Origin: Planctomycetota bacterium | Lineage (GTDB): Bacteria > Planctomycetota > JAJSAM01 > JAJVHW01 | Length of the DNA stretch: 64,000 nucleotides | Direction of reading: 5' to 3' | Assembly: GCA_965248445.1 (NCBI GenBank) | Contig: CBDFJG010000003.1 | Coordinates: 576,001 to 640,000, forward strand | Shown: positions 45,013-56,767 of the stretch, piece by piece | Layout: the number at the start of each line of letters is the position of its first letter | Numbering within the stretch: position 1 is the stretch's first letter | Made by a program: the position numbers and the translations under genes | The notes under the pieces: generated by a model | The model's database searches: none | What the model was told of the DNA's origin: nothing | What the model saw: only the letters and a program-made list of their open reading frames with translations

Positions 45013-46947
<1,935 letters not shown>

Positions 46948-47637: not shown

Positions 47638-48720
47638 ATGCGTCGGATAGCGACCGTCCTCGGCCTCCTTGCTGCTGTCGCCGCCCTAGCCTGGTGGTCG
47701 CTGTCGCCGCAGGAAGCGGAGGCGCCGGACGGGCCGGATCGCGCGAGCCCGACAACGCAGGAACCGGACTCTACACGGATCCCACGGCTGCGGGTGGCGC
47801 TGCCGAGAGACGCCCGGGAACGGGTGATCTACCTGCACGAGCACCTGCGGGCGCTGCGCGCCCGGTTCGACGCCGGCGTCGCAACCGAGAATGATGTCGC
47901 GGAGACCGAGCGTGCGCTGTGGATCGCTCGCGTGGCGGCGCGCGAGGTCTCGGAGAAGGCGTCGTACACCGAGGTCGCCAGGCTCGACGCGGAGGCGCTG
48001 AGCCGGGTGGAACGCAGGGAGGAGCAAGGAGTCGTGACCCCCGACGTGAAGTGGGTCGCACGTGTCCGTCTGCAGCAGTCGAAGCGGCGTGCGGGACATG
48101 ACGACGAGGAGTTCACCGCGGTGCGCGCCGCGTATCTCCAGTTCCTCGCCGCCGACAACGAGGCGAGGCTCCGGTCCGGTGTCAGCACGCCACGCGAGGT
48201 GCATCGCCGCGTCTTCGACGCGTGCAGCATATTCCCGTCGGCCGACGGTGCGAAGGACGCCGCGTGGGATCGGGCGGGCGCTGCCCTCCGCGACGTGCTC
48301 GCTGCGGATCTCGAGCGAGTGGGCGCGCAGACGCCGGGCGCGCGTCGCGTCGCTCTGGAGCTCGAGCTCGTGGACGTTTGCGAGGCGATCGGAGACGTCG
48401 CTGCCGACGACGCGCACACCCAGCGGGCGGTCATCTACGAGCAGGTCTTCCGGGAGCTCGAGCGGCGCACGGGGGCGACAGCCCCGTCGTCTGGCGACCT
48501 GGCCGCCGCCCGGCTGCGATGGCACCGCGAGATGCACTTCGGCGGTGAGAACAACCAGTACGTGCGCTTGCGCGAGCAGCTGTTCCGCGACGAACGTAAG
48601 CGTCTCGACACGCTCGTCTCGAACGGTCTGCTGGGCCCGAGCGAGCGCGCCACGACGATGGAGCGTCTGCGGGTGGAGTTCCCCGCCGCGAACGTGCTCG
48701 AAGATGTGCCCGGCGACTAG
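47638..48720 (+). CDS. Hypothetical membrane-anchored helical-repeat protein (TolC/OEP-like helical motifs)
   Basis: N-terminal TM; repeats LRARFDAGVAT, RREEQGVVT, RLRSGVST, LVSNGLLG. Confidence 0.65.
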   Translation: MRRIATVLGLLAAVAALAWWSLSPQEAEAPDGPDRASPTTQEPDSTRIPRLRVALPRDARERVIYLHEHLRALRARFDAGVATENDVAETERALWIARVAAREVSEKASYTEVARLDAEALSRVERREEQGVVTPDVKWVARVRLQQSKRRAGHDDEEFTAVRAAYLQFLAADNEARLRSGVSTPREVHRRVFDACSIFPSADGAKDAAWDRAGAALRDVLAADLERVGAQTPGARRVALELELVDVCEAIGDVAADDAHTQRAVIYEQVFRELERRTGATAPSSGDLAAARLRWHREMHFGGENNQYVRLREQLFRDERKRLDTLVSNGLLGPSERATTMERLRVEFPAANVLEDVPGD

Positions 48721-48768
48721 CCCGAAGAGGGGATCCGCCGGTCTGCACCGCTTCGCGGGCGGCCTAAG

Positions 48769-48874
48769 CTCAGGACTGCACTGGCCGGGCGCCTTGCGGC
48801 GCTGGGGATCCACGTTGTTCCGGGTGTCGCCAACTTCCTGCTCTGCCGGCTCCCGGCCCACGGCCCGGATACGT
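48769..48874 (+). pseudogene. Fragment resembling the C-terminus of a HisC/CobD-type aminotransferase
   Basis: Translates LRTALAGRLAALGIHVVPGVANFLLCRLPAHGPD with no start codon. Confidence 0.55.
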
Positions 48875-48967
48875 CCATCGTCGAGATGGAGAGCACACGG
48901 GTTGAGGACGATGGGGTCCTTGCGGACTGAAAGCGGTGCACGAGGCGAAGGGGGATCGGAGCATCGG

Positions 48968-51271
48968 GTGAGAGGACTCGGCGCGACTGTCGCCTTGCTG
49001 TTCTGCGCGACCGTCGCTGCGTGCGGAGGTGCGGACTCCGATCCCTCGTCGCCACGCCTTGACTACGTCGGGCGGGCGGCGTGCGCTGCTTGCCATGCGG
49101 ATGAGCACGAAGCGTGGAGCGGTTCGCACCACGATCTCGCGATGCAGGTGCCGACGGCGAGGACGGTCCTCGGGGACTTCGGCGGCGTCACGCTCGATTG
49201 GTGCGGCGTCACCTCCACGTTCACGCAGCGTGGCGACGAGTTCATCGTGCGCACCGAAGGCGACGACGGGGAGCTGCACGACTACACGGTTGCGTACACG
49301 TTCGGGGTCACGCCGCTGCAGCAGTACCTCGTGGAGTTCCCCGGCGGGCGGTACCAGACGCTCCCGTTCTGCTGGGACTCGCGCCCGGCGGATGCGGGAG
49401 GCCAGCGGTGGTTCCACATCTACCAGGACGAGCGGATCCCGCCCGGCGACGGGCTGTTCTGGACCGGGCGCGCCCAGAACTGGCAGATCATGTGCGCGGA
49501 GTGCCACTCGACACACCTCGTGAAGAACCACGATATCGAGACAGACTCCTACGCGACGACGTGGTCCGAGATCGACGTGTCCTGCGAGGCCTGTCACGGT
49601 CCGGGGCGCGAGCACGTGGCGTGGGGCGAGTCGCGGGCCGGGCGGGGGGTGGATCCGTACGAAGACGATCCGGATGACCCGATGGGCCTCGATGTAGTGC
49701 TGCGGCGCAGCACGCTACCGCCATGGGAGATCGACCCGGAGACCGGCAACGCGAAGCGCGAGCGGAGGCCGGAGGACGACGCCGAGATCGACGCATGCGC
49801 ACGCTGCCACTCTCGGCGCAGCCAGATGCGGGACGAGTACGTCCACGGCGGGCCGCTGCTCGACACGCACCGGGTCGCCCTGCTCGAGGAGCACCTGTAC
49901 TTCCCCGACGGTCAGATCAAGGGCGAGGTCTACGTCTACGGCTCGTTCGTGCAGAGCAAGATGTACGCCTCGGGCGTCGGCTGCACTGACTGCCACGAGC
50001 CGCACTCGCTGTCCTTGCGCGCGGAGGGCAACGCGCTCTGCACGCGCTGCCACCTGGACACCCAGTACGACGTGCCGGAGCACCACAACCACGAGCAGAA
50101 TGGCACGGGTGCCGCGTGCGTCGCGTGTCACATGCCGGAACGGACGTACATGGTCGTCGACCCCCGTCGGGACCACAGCCTCCGCGTGCCACGGCCGGAC
50201 CTGACACGCAAGACCGGGTCGCCCAACGCATGCAACGGGTGCCACGCCGACGAGCCGGTGGCGTGGGCCGAACAGCACGTCACCGCGTGGTACGGAGACG
50301 CGCGTTCCACCACGGAGCACTACGGCGACGTGTTCCGCGCGGCGCGCACCGGCGGGCCCGATCATGGGGCGCGCCTGATCCGGCTGGCATCCGACGGGAC
50401 GCAGACGGTGATCGTCCGCGCCACGGCGCTCTCGCTGCTGGGCGGCGCGGCGACGCCAGGCGCGGAGCGTCTGGTCGGCGCGTCGCTCCACGATGCAGAT
50501 TCGCTCGTGCGAGGTGTGGCGGCGAACATGCTGAGCGGACGGCCCCTGCCCGCGCGTGGCGCGGCGATCCCGCTGCTGCGGGATCCGGTGCTCGGCGTGC
50601 GCGTCGCCGCCGCGGAGGCGCTCCTCCCATTGATGGCGACGATGACGGGCGACGACGCCGTTGCGATGGACTCGGCGTACTCAGAACTCGTGGCGTATCA
50701 CCTGGCCACGAGTGACCGACCGGACGCGCACGTGAGCCTGGGCGCCTCGCATGCGGAGGCGGGGCGGGAGGAGGATGCAGAGAAGTCGTACCGGACCGCG
50801 CTGCGCCTCGATCCCTCGCTGGGCGCCGCATACGTGAACCTGGCGGAGCTCTTCAGGACGCAGCGGCGGGACGCCGACGGCGAGGCGCTGCTCTCGAAGG
50901 CGGCTTCGGAGCATCCGGACCAGGCCGCGTTGCATCACGCCCTTGGACTCGCGCGCGTGCGCCTCTCGCGAGTCGACGCGGCCCTGCCCTCACTCACTCG
51001 CGCGGCGGAGTTGGCCCCGGACGTGGCGCGCTACGGCTACGCGCACGGCGTCGCGTTGCACTCGACGGGGGATCTCCGAGGTGCGATCGCGGTGCTGACG
51101 GCGGCGCACGAGCGCCACCCGCGAGACGTCTCGATCGTGGAGGCGCTGGCTACCATCCACCGAGAAGCGGGAGAGTCGGAGGCGGCGCTGCGTTACGCGG
51201 CGGTACTCGTCGCGCTGCGTCCGGGAGATCCGGCGGCGAGACGGTTGCTCGAGCAGTTGCAGGGGCGTTAG
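48968..51271 (+). CDS. Multiheme c-type cytochrome lipoprotein (8 CxxCH) with HEAT and TPR repeats
   Basis: GGAG RBS before GTG (ATG 48911 is an alternative); lipobox VAA-C; CAACH, CAECH, CEACH, CARCH, CTDCH, CTRCH, CVACH, CNGCH; C-terminal TPRs. Confidence 0.92.
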   Translation: MRGLGATVALLFCATVAACGGADSDPSSPRLDYVGRAACAACHADEHEAWSGSHHDLAMQVPTARTVLGDFGGVTLDWCGVTSTFTQRGDEFIVRTEGDDGELHDYTVAYTFGVTPLQQYLVEFPGGRYQTLPFCWDSRPADAGGQRWFHIYQDERIPPGDGLFWTGRAQNWQIMCAECHSTHLVKNHDIETDSYATTWSEIDVSCEACHGPGREHVAWGESRAGRGVDPYEDDPDDPMGLDVVLRRSTLPPWEIDPETGNAKRERRPEDDAEIDACARCHSRRSQMRDEYVHGGPLLDTHRVALLEEHLYFPDGQIKGEVYVYGSFVQSKMYASGVGCTDCHEPHSLSLRAEGNALCTRCHLDTQYDVPEHHNHEQNGTGAACVACHMPERTYMVVDPRRDHSLRVPRPDLTRKTGSPNACNGCHADEPVAWAEQHVTAWYGDARSTTEHYGDVFRAARTGGPDHGARLIRLASDGTQTVIVRATALSLLGGAATPGAERLVGASLHDADSLVRGVAANMLSGRPLPARGAAIPLLRDPVLGVRVAAAEALLPLMATMTGDDAVAMDSAYSELVAYHLATSDRPDAHVSLGASHAEAGREEDAEKSYRTALRLDPSLGAAYVNLAELFRTQRRDADGEALLSKAASEHPDQAALHHALGLARVRLSRVDAALPSLTRAAELAPDVARYGYAHGVALHSTGDLRGAIAVLTAAHERHPRDVSIVEALATIHREAGESEAALRYAAVLVALRPGDPAARRLLEQLQGR

Positions 51272-52000: not shown

Positions 52001-53005
52001 CTACTCGCCGGTCTCTTCGGAACTCGCGTCGCCGTCATCGCCCGCCGGTCCCTTGCCACCGAAGAGAGGCGCCCAGCGGGTGCCCCCGAGACTCTCCAGC
52101 GCCTTGGCCTTTGCCCTGTCGAGCTGGTCGGTCTTCTCCGGGCGTATCGCGTCGATCTGCACGTATGCGGTGATCGCGGCGACGCCGTGCTCTGCGGTGG
52201 CGGCCTCCGGCTCGCCCTTGAACAGCTTGGCTAGTCTCTTGAGGTCCTTCTTCCACGTGGCTGCGGCCTTCTTGTCGGCGGGCCTCTCGACCAGCGCTTG
52301 TTCGATGCGCACGAACTCAGAGTCCGCGTAGTCGCGGGCAAACTGCATTGCCTCGTCGACTTGCGCCCGTTCGTCGCAGCGGCCGCGAATGGCAGCGCCC
52401 TGCCTGCCGAACGCGAGAACCTTCGGCAGGTCACCGTCCTCGGCGGCGGCAACGGCCTTCTCACCGAGCACGACGAGCTTCGCCGCGTCCTGCGCGGTCG
52501 CGGGGAACAGCGGGTGGTTCTCGACGAGATCGAGGTCCTTCTCGAACTCCGCGATCGTGCGGCTGCCGGTGTAACCGTGCACGAACTGGAAGTCGTGCGT
52601 CATGAACGCGATGTAGGGGAGGCTGCCCAAGCCTTTGAACTTCTCGCTGAAGTAGAGGAGGAGCTTGCGCTCGACGTCGGGCGGGTCGGCGGCCGCGGCC
52701 AGACCGACGGCGATCTTCGAGATGCGCGCGCGCACCGGCTTGGTGGGGAGGACGCCCTCCACGAGGGCGCGGCACTTGCTTCAACTCTCGCGGCCGAACT
52801 CGATCAGGATCAGCTTGCGCCGCTCCTCCGCGACCTTCTGCGCGTCGGCCAGCTTCTTGGACCAGTCGAGCGTGCCCTTGTCGTCGTAGAGACGGTGGGG
52901 GCGGAGCGGGTCGGTGTCGGATCCGCGGGCGCCCAGCAGACTGGGCGCGAACGACAGCGCGAGGGTGGCGAGCAGGGCCACGGCAGCGATCCGGGTTGCA
53001 TGCAT
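52001..53005 (-). CDS. Secreted thioredoxin-like probable selenoprotein (U75, UxxC motif), 334 aa with readthrough
   Basis: The 52781-53035 and 52001-52762 ORFs share one frame, joined by TGA: W...L..A...A....KLILIEFGRES-U-SKC-RALV. GGAGG RBS, signal peptide, later LPY cis-Pro motif, SECIS-like hairpin. Confidence 0.82.
52752..52770 (-). promoter_or_regulatory. Candidate bacterial SECIS element
   Basis: GCGCCCUC-GUG-GAGGGCGU hairpin begins 11 nt after the UGA; the loop starts with G, 18 nt from the UGA. Confidence 0.7.
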
Positions 53006-53198
53006 CCGAGAACCTCCCTGCAGGTCGGGACGCACGTGGCCGCGTTCCGGTTCCGCCAGGCTACTCGTTCGGATCGTCAGCGCACGCGGCGGGCCGGAGC
53101 CGCTCTGCTCAGCCGATCGTCAGAGAAGGCCAACGGCCTCTCGCGGGAGGGATCAGCGCGTCCCGGCGGCGGGACCGCCGGGACGCGCGTCGATCAGA

Positions 53199-53722: not shown

Positions 53723-56700
53723 TCAATCGCAGCCTGCGCGCTCGAGGGCCCCTCGCACGGAGATGACGTCCCGGACCTGCTCGTACTGGGCGGTTGAGAC
53801 CCTCGCCGCAGCCTGCGCCAGCAGCTCCCGCACGCGTGGCAACGAGTCGCCGGCATGCGGCGCGATGAGCCCCAGGAACTCGCAGACCGCGAAGTGGTCG
53901 GGCTCCTCCGCCGCTTCGTCGAGGAGGTCGGACAGTTCGTCTTGATCGACCGGCGCCCCGCAGTCCATTTGGAGACCGCGCGACACCATGTAAGCAGCGC
54001 GGAACCCCGCCGCCGCCCAGAGAGTGCCCGCGCGCTCGGCCAGTGACCGCGCCAGGTTGCGATCCCCGGCCTGCCGGGCGAATGGCGCTTCCGCGGAAAG
54101 AGCCATGGCTTCGATCCACGGAGAGCCGATCGCGGCGGCGGCCTCGACGAACTCGAGATCGGGGGGCAAGACGTCACCCGCGTCGTAGTGCATTCTGCGG
54201 ATGACGGCCTCGGCGTACGCCTCGTACAGCGCGTGGCGCGAGACCCTTGCGATCTCGCGCGCTTCGTCGGCCGCGTTCAGACAATCGTCGAGACGACCTG
54301 CTTCCAGGAACGCCACGGCCGCGTTCAGCAGCGCTGCCATGCGCACGGGCGCGCGCGTCACGCCCTCGAGGCCGGCGATCTCCATCTCGGCGGCTTCGGC
54401 GTGCCGCATCTGGCGGCTGTAGAGCAACGCCGTCCACGCGCGGTGGTTGGCGCGCGCGCGGTCGCTGTCGATGCGCTCGGCCCACTCACCGATCTCCTCC
54501 AGGATCGCGATCTGACGGTCCAGCGGGAGGCGCCCGCTCACGTTCGACCGTATGCCCTGTCGCCACAACTCGAGCACCACATCGTCGAACGGACCGCACG
54601 CGTCGAGCATCTTCATCGCCCGCGCGGGATCGCCGGTGTGGCTCTCCTGGACAGCGAGCAGGAACTGACGCATCTCTCCGAGGTGCGCGGCCTGGTTCGG
54701 TGCGCGCCCCATCTCGTAGAGCGCCTGGTTCACGGCTCCGGTCGTGCCGTCGGCGAGACAGGCCCGCACGTACGCCATGAGCACGTCGTCGTGCGAGCGG
54801 TCGTCGTTTGCCCGGCGGGCCGCGTCAAGCCCCAGCGCGAACGCGGCGAGCGCGTCTCCCGTCTTCCCCGCCGTGACGAGACGCCGGCCCAGAGCCAGGG
54901 ATTCGGCCACGACCTCGTCGGGATCGCCGGACGAGGCGAGGTGCCGAAGGCGACCCCCCGAACCCGGGGGCAGGGAGTCTGCGAGCTTCCTGTGCGCGGC
55001 CTCACGCTTCTCGTCCGTCCATGTCTGGAGAACTTCGGGCAGCGCCAGTGGCTGCAGGCGGCCGTCCTCCAGGCGGCGGAGCAGTCCCTCCTCGACCAGC
55101 AGGTCGATCTCGGGCTGGAGAGTCCAACCGGGGCGGCCGGCGACCTTCGTGAGGAGGTCGAAGTCGCCGTACGGCCACGCCAGCGCGATCCACGCGAGGA
55201 GTTCCTGCAGCTCTCCCGAACGCAGCGCCGCGAGCCGCGGGCCGGAGAGCAACGCGCCACCGACCGGCAGTCCGTCGTGCAGGCGATTCAGCGCGGTGCG
55301 CTCGATTTCGATGCGGCCGTCCACCCAGTGCGCGAAGCCGTGGCGCACCCACGCGGAGATCTCGGCTGCGACGTTCCCCGGGACGCCCCCGGTGCGCCGC
55401 CACAGCTCGTCCGCGGCGTCCTCGGGGATGTGGAGGATCCGGCTGGGCCCCGCGAAGAGCGGGCGCAGGTCTTGTGCGGAGAGGGAGCCCAGCCGGACAC
55501 AGCCCGCGGTCGGCGCTTCGATGACCCGCACGACCGACCCTTCGGAGCGGCCGCGGTCGATTGCGGACTGGGACCACGGATCCACGCTCTGCGGTTCGTC
55601 GACCAGGAAGACCGCGCCGCTCTGGAGTGCATCGAAGAAGCGCTTGTCGAGCACTTCGAACGCGTCTTCCTGGGACATGGTCTCGAGTCCGTCGAAACCA
55701 CCGATGTGGGTTGCGAGGCTCGCGTACGGACTCCGCCCGACCTGCACCCAGTACACGGATCGTCCGTCGCTCTCGGCGGACTCCGCGGCGTCTTCGAGCA
55801 GACGGGAACGCCCACTCCCGGGGCCGCCATGGACGTCGATGGACCGGCGCTCGGTGACCGCGGCGAGCACTGACTCGACCGCTTCGCGGGACCCCAGGCG
55901 GGGCACTCGTTGCTCGCCGGTCGACGGTGCGCCGCCGCCGAAGAGCAGTCGCAGCGCCTCGCCGGCGGACTGGGGGCGGTCCCGCGGATCGACGGAAAGG
56001 AGTTGGTCGACGATGGCGGCGATTTCCCGCGGAACGTCCGGCGCCACGCGGGCGAGCGGGATCGATGCGCCGGACAGCTTCTGTCGCAGCAGGGCCGCGA
56101 AGTCGCTCACGTGGATGGGGAGGTCGCCGCTCAGCGCTTCGTAGAGCATCACTCCGAGGGCATAGAGGTCCGTGCGGCCGTCGATGCCCCGGCCTCGGAT
56201 CTGCTCCGGCGCCAGGTATTCGGGTGTGCCGACCATGGCGCCGTCAATCGTCACGCCGCCGCCGAGCGCGGGTCCGTACGACAACCCGAAGTCGACCAGG
56301 GTCACGCGCCCGTCGTCACCGACGAGCACGTTGGCGGGCTTGAGGTCGCGATGGACCACGCCGGCCGCGTGCACGCGGCCGAGTGTCTCGAGCATGGAGC
56401 GGATCAGCGGGGCGATGGACTCCCAGTCCCGGGCGCGCCCGTCTCCCGGGAACTCGGTCCCGTCGACGAGGTCCATGACGAGGTGTGTGGCGTCCCCGTC
56501 GGTGACCTCGTCTCGCAGCGTGACGACACCGGGAAGGCGCAGGAGGCGCAGCGCGGCGATCTCTCGATGCAGGCGCGGTTCGGACGAGAGCAGGCTGCGC
56601 TTGACCGACTTGACCGCGACCGCGCCGCCCGCGAACAGGTCCTCTCCGCGCCAGACCACGCCCGCCGCCCCGCGGCCCAATTCGCCGCGGAGCTCGTAGC

Positions 56701-56767
56701 GCCCGCCGAGGATGCGATTCCCCGCGTCGATCGGTTCGCGTGAGATCAGGTCGCCGTCCGCCGCCAT
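53723..56767 (-). CDS. Hanks-type Ser/Thr kinase with a degenerate P-loop NTPase domain and TPR-like C-terminus
   Basis: GRGAAG, VAVK, HRDLKPAN, DFG, GTPEYLAPE; then GGPGSGRS and TGGVP motifs; helical repeats. Confidence 0.92.
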   Translation of the reverse strand: MAADGDLISREPIDAGNRILGGRYELRGELGRGAAGVVWRGEDLFAGGAVAVKSVKRSLLSSEPRLHREIAALRLLRLPGVVTLRDEVTDGDATHLVMDLVDGTEFPGDGRARDWESIAPLIRSMLETLGRVHAAGVVHRDLKPANVLVGDDGRVTLVDFGLSYGPALGGGVTIDGAMVGTPEYLAPEQIRGRGIDGRTDLYALGVMLYEALSGDLPIHVSDFAALLRQKLSGASIPLARVAPDVPREIAAIVDQLLSVDPRDRPQSAGEALRLLFGGGAPSTGEQRVPRLGSREAVESVLAAVTERRSIDVHGGPGSGRSRLLEDAAESAESDGRSVYWVQVGRSPYASLATHIGGFDGLETMSQEDAFEVLDKRFFDALQSGAVFLVDEPQSVDPWSQSAIDRGRSEGSVVRVIEAPTAGCVRLGSLSAQDLRPLFAGPSRILHIPEDAADELWRRTGGVPGNVAAEISAWVRHGFAHWVDGRIEIERTALNRLHDGLPVGGALLSGPRLAALRSGELQELLAWIALAWPYGDFDLLTKVAGRPGWTLQPEIDLLVEEGLLRRLEDGRLQPLALPEVLQTWTDEKREAAHRKLADSLPPGSGGRLRHLASSGDPDEVVAESLALGRRLVTAGKTGDALAAFALGLDAARRANDDRSHDDVLMAYVRACLADGTTGAVNQALYEMGRAPNQAAHLGEMRQFLLAVQESHTGDPARAMKMLDACGPFDDVVLELWRQGIRSNVSGRLPLDRQIAILEEIGEWAERIDSDRARANHRAWTALLYSRQMRHAEAAEMEIAGLEGVTRAPVRMAALLNAAVAFLEAGRLDDCLNAADEAREIARVSRHALYEAYAEAVIRRMHYDAGDVLPPDLEFVEAAAAIGSPWIEAMALSAEAPFARQAGDRNLARSLAERAGTLWAAAGFRAAYMVSRGLQMDCGAPVDQDELSDLLDEAAEEPDHFAVCEFLGLIAPHAGDSLPRVRELLAQAAARVSTAQYEQVRDVISVRGALERAGCD

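Follow-up and report, generated by a model that had tools for sequence, protein, structure and literature searches.

Thioredoxin (Trx)-fold proteins with a UxxC active site, in which selenocysteine (Sec, U) takes the first cysteine position of CxxC, are the commonest catalogued type of selenoprotein. Those listed in a 2026 review (PMC13188914) include thioredoxin (PF00085, verified) and a thiol:disulfide interchange protein (PF13098, predicted), and its Table 1 adds thiol-disulfide isomerase-like, DsbG-like and DsbA-like UxxC proteins. The same review describes the bacterial SECIS (bSECIS) model as a hairpin with a loop of 3-9 nt, a G in the first two loop positions, a spacing of 16-37 nt and a minimum free energy (MFE) of -7.5 or lower; it also states that selenoproteins are seldom kept by aerobic bacteria and that replacement of Sec by Cys is a rare event (PMC13188914). 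Within a 64,000-nt stretch of Planctomycetota DNA (the window), the minus strand from 53005 to 52001 has an in-frame TGA at such a site, and comparison of sequences gives very good support to a real selenoprotein whose family appears to be uncatalogued. As a mechanism the recoding is textbook; it is the particular planctomycete family that seems to be missing from current catalogues.

A single reading frame across an active-site TGA

The locus is almost certainly a single gene for a secreted redox enzyme and not two short genes. Read with TGA as Sec, the frame encodes 334 residues with only one recoded codon (U75), in the context KLILIEFGRES-U-SK-C-RALVEG, the TGA standing at position 1 of a thioredoxin U-S-K-C site (Table 1). 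Gene calling with translation table 11 produces an upstream ORF stopping at 52781 and a separate 253-aa ORF from a GTG at 52762, and a public protein collection contains precisely this 253-aa piece of the gene; the false GTG start is the loop of the hairpin described below. The preliminary description had joined the two listed ORFs into one frame with a TGA at the first Cys of a CxxC motif, and both points were borne out when the 334-codon frame was re-read and homologues were found to have TGA or Cys at that position. The codon is TGA, and neither TGC nor TGT, in four public assemblies with no differences over the stretch, all of which come from one sample, possibly the one behind this genome, and are not independent of the source. 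A scan of the locus for promoters and terminators found none.

Table 1. Features of the selenoprotein gene and its product, in window coordinates
Feature	Position	Strand	Basis
Shine-Dalgarno-like GGAGG	53013..53017	-	sequence; 7 nt upstream of ATG
Full coding sequence, 334 aa, UGA read as Sec	52001..53005	-	sequence; full-length alignment with orthologues
ATG start; true stop TAG	53005; 52003-52001	-	sequence
Predicted signal peptide, about residues 1-25	52931..53005	-	hydrophobic N-terminal stretch; without lipobox cysteine
Thioredoxin-fold domain, about residues 34-168, Thioredoxin_7/DUF255/DsbD-gamma type	52502..52906	-	sub-cut-off Pfam, structure, PDB profile search
In-frame TGA, predicted Sec75, nucleophile position of UxxC	52781..52783	-	TGA 62 and Cys 57 among 119 sites
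Cys78, resolving position of UxxC	52772..52774	-	Cys in 62/62 Sec homologues
SECIS hairpin, 8-bp stem, GUG loop at 52762-52760	52752..52770	-	Sec versus Cys comparison, compensatory changes
Pro130 (Leu-Pro), at the thioredoxin cis-proline loop position	52616..52618	-	invariant in family alignment; cis geometry inferred from fold
C-terminal domain made up entirely of helices (six long ones), about residues 171-315, end GTRWxxLF, possibly TPR-like	52061..52495	-	model
Acidic low-complexity tail, unconserved	52004..52060	-	alignment and model

A model of the protein built from a 68-sequence alignment reached a pLDDT of 90.9, with residues 1-30 at low confidence and a loose tail. It places the UxxC at the start of the first helix (residues 76-85, following a strand at 65-71) and has the proline loop with the invariant P130, the two features by which a thioredoxin fold is recognized. 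On this model the N-terminal domain is a DsbD-gamma/DUF255-type thioredoxin fold: it superposes on 3f9u with Z 14.1 (rmsd 2.8 over 126 residues) and on 3ira with Z 13.5, further structural matches include 7tkv, 2lst, DsbH and DsbD-gamma, and a PDB profile search also supports the Thioredoxin_7/DUF255/DsbD-gamma type. Pfam Thioredoxin_7, DUF255 and Thioredoxin_2 all match the 334-aa protein below cut-off, Thioredoxin_7 (PF13899) with 23.9 bits against a gathering cut-off of 27, and PF13098 reaches 18.8 bits against 27; Thioredoxin_7 matches 34 of the 68 aligned family sequences at E ≤ 0.01, the best at 2e-13. The family signature is HPxFxDxGxLxW...E[YF]GRx-U/C-xx-C.

The C-terminal domain forms six long helices with pLDDT above 90 in the same alignment-based model, and modelled alone without an alignment it reached a pLDDT of 51. 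Structure searches with the whole model barely cover residues beyond about 183. No Pfam match to this domain, TPR included, was found in the 68 aligned sequences, and a search of the Atlas with a Cys homologue as query gave a lead to TPR-clan clusters with scores of at most 0.89, so that the domain is perhaps TPR-like. It was found in none of 2,238 candidate longer proteins, which is weak evidence, and aligns weakly (HHalign probability 27%) with another exported Trx-plus-helical selenoprotein of the genome. The long form of the family is predicted to be exported from its signal-peptide-like N-terminus, a hydrophobic N-terminus being present here and in 21 of the 23 long Sec homologues with enough upstream sequence versus none of 30 short forms. 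An exported protein with a Trx fold and an extra helical C-terminal domain is what had been proposed at the outset; the first holds as a prediction, and the other two are seen in the model, the fold with a Z 14 structure match.

Two probable lipoprotein genes without Pfam matches flank the gene on the same (-) strand, at 53603-53199 and 51993-51268, the downstream one beginning 7 nt past the stop; neither was found beside homologues. Also nearby are a multiheme c-type cytochrome gene with HEAT/TPR repeats (48062-51271, +), a Ser/Thr kinase-ATPase fusion gene (53723-56767, -) and a DnaK-like gene recognized from sequence (45013-46947, +). Among 23 long-form loci, no neighbouring family was shared beyond near-identical loci. 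In 9 of 49 loci the short form immediately precedes a DUF255/YyaL-type gene, and all nine are Sec forms, mostly from one clade; an initial count of 28 such loci was mostly a clustering artefact.

Homologues, the active-site codon and the SECIS hairpin

Homologues matched in 8 of 41 related genomes and, at E ≤ 1e-8, in 49 of 301 genomes from across the phylum, and 43 genome loci and 52 metagenome loci were recovered. Titles of the named homologous records read as Planctomycetota MAGs in 41 of 43 cases, and the other two say only 'uncultured bacterium'. A profile located the active-site column in 147 hits, those gapped at the column having been left out, and after removal of duplicates 119 distinct sites remained (11 of them cut by contig ends), with TGA at 62 and TGC or TGT (Cys) at 57; TAA or TAG was found at none of the 119. 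The homologues align on both sides of the TGA, all having TGA or Cys in its column, and those bearing TGA are as distant as about 33% identity. None of the three outcomes that the preliminary description had named as refuting, namely absence of selABC, TGC or TGT at the codon, and homologues failing to align here, was seen. Family motifs guided the locus searches, which makes the sample a biased one, and since the homologues are related these counts are not independent events. Among database proteins, 154 were hit and 153 aligned: CxxC is present in 110, fragments account for 35 (29 C-terminal ones and 6 N-terminal ones, the latter all ending exactly at residue 74), and 8 are other. Such N- and C-terminal fragments beside CxxC proteins are the usual footprint of a mis-called Sec gene.

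Three architectures were distinguished. The long form with a hydrophobic N-terminus comprises 30 Sec and 6 Cys members (3 of the latter distant), a short form of about 130 aa without the hydrophobic N-terminus comprises 26 Sec and 23 Cys members, and other, mostly longer proteins (23 sites) are Cys only. A quick unrooted tree of 123 columns, with 3 short rows omitted, needs 16 Sec/Cys changes, of which 5 are forced by branches with support of at least 95. The active-site dipeptide is mostly G-N across the family and S-K in the 334-aa protein, and the counterpart of Pro130 is preceded by Leu in all 30 long Sec forms. At residue 106 (52690-52688, -), which is Ala in this protein, 23 of the 30 long Sec homologues have a third Cys immediately ahead of the conserved Asp107. 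Within the helical domain, a cysteine in a G-R-C context (Cys210 here, 52378-52376, -) is found in 21 of 30 long Sec versus 1 of 6 long Cys members. In one Planctomycetota group the longer Cys-only relatives occur as tandem paralogues, and of the 10 genomes of that group that were handled, all have selB and 9 have selA.

The hairpin downstream of the TGA, GCGCCCTC-GTG-GAGGGCGT, has its first base in the 11th position past the UGA and contains seven Watson-Crick pairs and one G-U pair, a loop 18 nt from UGA and an energy of -13.5 kcal/mol, which places it within the published bSECIS model in loop, G, spacing and MFE (PMC13188914). The 8-bp stem with a GUG loop starting 11 nt downstream had thus been correctly described from the start. 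Taken alone, the hairpin is weak evidence for Sec insertion: a 60-nt segment folds no better than its shuffles (z -0.87) and has a different structure as its MFE fold, and of 5,000 TGA triplets drawn at random from this genome (69% GC), 13% satisfy the generic model and 1.9% attain -13.5. Its significance comes from comparative data and not from single-sequence folding.

The stem core of five pairs is preserved in 62 of 62 TGA genes versus 4 of 57 Cys genes and, within the short form only, where protein sequences are similar, in 26 of 26 Sec versus 3 of 23 Cys genes. All 62 TGA genes have GT at the loop, and the stems show compensatory changes (GCC...GGC, GCG...CGC, GCT...AGC, ACG...CGT, TCC...GGA, AGC...GCT and TTC...GAA). 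When 3' arms were permuted among Sec genes, the number of intact cores averaged 18 and never exceeded 28, versus the 62 observed. Because Leu-Val-Glu codons pair easily, a synonymous-recoding control was run at family codon usage; it predicted 13.3±3.1 intact cores for the Sec genes versus 62 observed, and 3.0±1.5 for the Cys genes versus 4 observed. Among 27 distinct 15-mers, 24 are fully Watson-Crick versus 3.1 expected, and slid registers pair at 0.20-0.69 versus 1.00 at the true register. The core-pair, permutation, recoding and slide results together indicate that the hairpin is selected as RNA, and only where the codon is UGA. A 'fossil SECIS' in the Cys members was considered and rejected, since the 4 intact cores of 57 are at chance level.

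Selenocysteine machinery and other predicted selenoproteins

The genome (5.4 Mb, 92% complete) encodes selA, selB and selD, each above its family cut-off, and a 96-nt tRNA-Sec (selC) scoring 68 bits with Rfam; the selD gene itself has an in-frame TGA. All four lie outside the window, in agreement with the earlier statement that no sel genes occur within it. Across genomes carrying the family, selA was found in 32 of 33, selB in 33 of 33 and tRNA-Sec in 30 of 33, and Cys members occur in genomes that retain the Sec machinery. The idea that Cys forms result from loss of that machinery was rejected, as the family genomes are still Sec-competent.

Decoding of the UGA as Cys, Trp or Gly, through a different genetic code or a non-Sec tRNA, is very improbable. 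UGA-to-Cys recoding by tRNA-Sec-like tRNAs has been described in some bacteria, but in this genome TGA is the main stop codon, terminating 1,273 of 2,015 long coding-like ORFs, the sole UCA-anticodon tRNA found is the 96-nt tRNA-Sec, and SelA, SelB and SelD are all present. That the locus is a pseudogene, a sequencing error or two genes with a restart at the GTG is scarcely credible, even though a single change converts TGC to TGA and gene callers do make this split: one TGA column in 62 distinct sequences, with a conserved open frame behind it and a co-varying hairpin, excludes a pseudogene, and a two-gene arrangement would break the Trx fold in two at the active site and start the second gene inside the hairpin loop. 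An aligned UGA, the hairpin and selABCD, which are all the testable features of a SelB/SECIS-type selenoprotein gene, were found, and on sequence grounds it is close to certain that Sec would be inserted at this UGA.

A genome-wide screen of 106,484 TGA junctions returned 52 and 43 candidates under two filters. From these, 28 were chosen by eye and 27 scanned, giving a hand-picked and incomplete list in which 18 of 27 match redox or known selenoprotein Pfam domains; one further candidate matches an ArsC selenoprotein model, and SelD adds one. The genome is thus predicted to encode at least about 20, perhaps 25-30, selenoproteins, the predicted set including Trx, TlpA/ResA-like, Trx7, three AhpD-like, deiodinase-like, SelW-like, ArsC-like, DUF1223, DUF3179 and SelD proteins. 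With TGA in 8 of the 11 Thioredoxin_7 matches of this genome, an exported Trx-fold UxxC gene is nothing unusual here but the norm, and the 334-aa gene is therefore one of many. Three more TGA-containing Thioredoxin_7 matches were missed by the screen (C3:1611566-1611820, C3:1539388-1539633 and C1:331076-331288), two of them with two TGAs. Eight TGA read-through candidates, so classed from the screen only, have no redox family match; they include one small exported protein with U-P-N-C, one exported protein with a CU motif and one FG-GAP protein with G-U-S-C.

In the DsbD of this genome (C1:397668-399623, -), TGA replaces the codon for the first Cys of the gamma-domain CxxC; of 17 genomes of the class, 12 gave a DsbD match, and all 12 have TGA there. 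Hairpins follow the TGA, but in this genome's family most of them, this genome's own included, are without the canonical G-loop, which makes the protein a candidate Sec-DsbD whose SECIS is atypical. The genome also encodes subunit I of a heme-copper oxidase.

Proposed role and comparison with known families

In the mechanism that we propose, SelB and Sec-tRNA(UCA) would, with little room for doubt, bind the hairpin, with its GU loop at a distance of 18 nt from the UGA, and so place Sec75 in a 334-aa precursor, which its signal peptide would very probably direct to the periplasm. By established thioredoxin chemistry, the Sec75 selenolate would in all likelihood attack a client disulfide or oxidized cysteine, and Cys78 would resolve the mixed bond to give an Se-S bond. 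The last step is less firm, the balance tipping towards a reductase, isomerase or repair enzyme on the reducing side that would be re-reduced by DsbD, and the whole chain, from Sec insertion through export and thioredoxin chemistry to a reducing role via DsbD, would have a slightly better than even chance of being right. The helical C-terminal domain would most likely bind clients or a partner. Our best guess at the function is a periplasmic disulfide reductase or isomerase recycled by DsbD. The closest folds (DsbD-gamma-like, DUF255 and DsbH) support a reducing role and, as a rule of thumb, Leu before the loop proline and a dipeptide other than x-His fit a reductase better than an oxidase; the TGA in the DsbD gamma domain throughout the class is in keeping with recycling by DsbD. 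Against this stand the lack of any conserved neighbour of the long form that would point to a partner or pathway, the location of DsbD on another contig, the non-canonical loop of this genome's DsbD hairpin and the presence of a VKOR.

The same selenoprotein might instead be a periplasmic oxidase in a DsbA-like role, re-oxidized by the genome's VKOR, which seems unlikely. Oxidases typically have an x-His active-site dipeptide, and neither the S-K seen here nor the G-N that prevails in the family is of that kind; there is no DsbA/DSBA family match, and the best structural matches are to DsbD-gamma, DUF255 and DsbH types. On the other side, the presence of VKOR means that an oxidative pathway exists in the genome, DsbB was not found at 92% completeness, and DsbA-like UxxC selenoproteins are catalogued (PMC13188914, Table 1). 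By analogy with CnoX/YbbN, the protein could be a chaperedoxin, here exported to the periplasm, whose helical domain would act as a holdase while Sec75 shields client cysteines. The order of Trx and helical domains is the same, Foldseek ranks E. coli YbbN first (E 2.4e-5), and the Atlas lead for the C-terminal domain is the TPR clan, CnoX being a Trx plus TPR protein (PMC8129009). However, the YbbN match has an rmsd of 15 A and a TM of about 0.25-0.29, the 68 sequences lack a TPR Pfam match, about six long helices stand against the two five-helix subdomains of CnoX, CnoX works with the cytoplasmic GroEL and DnaK, and a short form without the helical domain exists, so that we hold a chaperedoxin, too, to be unlikely. 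A narrower job, as a reductase that detoxifies peroxide or selenium-sulfur compounds or as a reductant in apocytochrome c maturation, is quite unlikely: many Sec Trx-fold proteins are peroxidases (PMC13188914), the best structural match, 3f9u, is annotated as cytochrome c biogenesis-related and the multiheme cytochrome gene lies nearby on the opposite strand, but no AhpC, Redoxin or GPx match was found and other loci of the family do not have the cytochrome gene beside them.

For the DsbD-recycled reductase or isomerase that we prefer, a wider picture can be drawn tentatively, and we consider it possible but doubtful: a periplasmic reducing relay made largely from Sec, in a planctomycete lineage that has an oxidase, in which a UxxC DsbD would feed many exported UxxC Trx-plus-helical enzymes, the 334-aa protein being one terminal, perhaps a periplasmic Sec chaperedoxin, and the family showing a clear case of repeated gene-level Sec/Cys switching within genomes that retain the Sec machinery. 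If true, such a relay, together with repeated Sec/Cys switching accompanied by SECIS loss, would contradict both of the statements on aerobic bacteria and on Sec-to-Cys changes made in the 2026 review (PMC13188914). More broadly, the new family comprises at least 62 distinct Sec-type sequences, apparently in Planctomycetota only, and its annotation can be corrected because databases list it as fragments or as 'DUF255 protein'. Its mixed Sec and Cys members, in which the SECIS tracks the codon almost perfectly, form a clean, naturally occurring data set on which SECIS rules and Sec/Cys switching can be studied. With the UxxC DsbD, about 20 other predicted selenoproteins and the heme-copper oxidase, it points to a selenium-rich envelope redox biology in uncultured planctomycetes.

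The suggestion that the family might be uncatalogued held up as regards curated families. Wherever NCBIfam scores were given, neither the 68 family sequences nor 30 tabulated ones approached a cut-off, and the 119-family selenoprotein table of the 2026 review has no row with a Trx plus helical C-terminal domain architecture (PMC13188914). Literature searches turned up no description of the family, although members may already be within BSepDB (PMC13326102) under a broad Trx label. The NCBI label for Cys members is 'DUF255 domain-containing protein', and DUF255 is absent as a selenoprotein family from the main text and table of the review (PMC13188914).

The family shares with the catalogued UxxC Trx selenoproteins the UxxC at the Trx site, a SECIS within the ORF 16-37 nt after UGA, Cys homologues and SelA/B/C/D (PMC13188914), and differs from them in a conserved HPxFxDxGxLxW N-terminal segment and a helical C-terminal domain of about 145 aa. 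NF041199 (Trx7/PDZ) is of the same Trx subtype and matches weakly over the first ~45 model positions, but the 334-aa protein scores only 13 bits where the model demands 300, a PDZ domain was not found in it, and the NF041199 motif is CxxU where this protein has UxxC. The VPGUxxT proteins NF041382/NF041383 are likewise Trx-like selenoproteins, and the C-terminal half of VPGUxxT type 1 matches the helical tail of another exported selenoprotein in the genome, the one with which the family aligns weakly; the family itself is without the VPGUxxT motif, and its best member scores 19 bits against cut-offs of 275-350. The 334-aa protein is a member of neither NF041199 nor NF041382/NF041383. Thioredox_DsbH/DUF255 proteins (the YyaL-type N-domain; 7tkv, 3ira), DsbD-gamma, DsbH (2ju5) and 2lst are alike in fold (Z 12-14), but the fused C-terminal barrel of YyaL is absent from the family and DUF255-type proteins have Cys where the 334-aa protein has its predicted Sec. 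CnoX/YbbN (3qou) shares the succession of a Trx domain and a helical domain; it is cytoplasmic, whereas the long form of the family is predicted to be exported, the E. coli protein has SxxC in place of UxxC, the family is without a TPR profile match, and the global superposition is poor.
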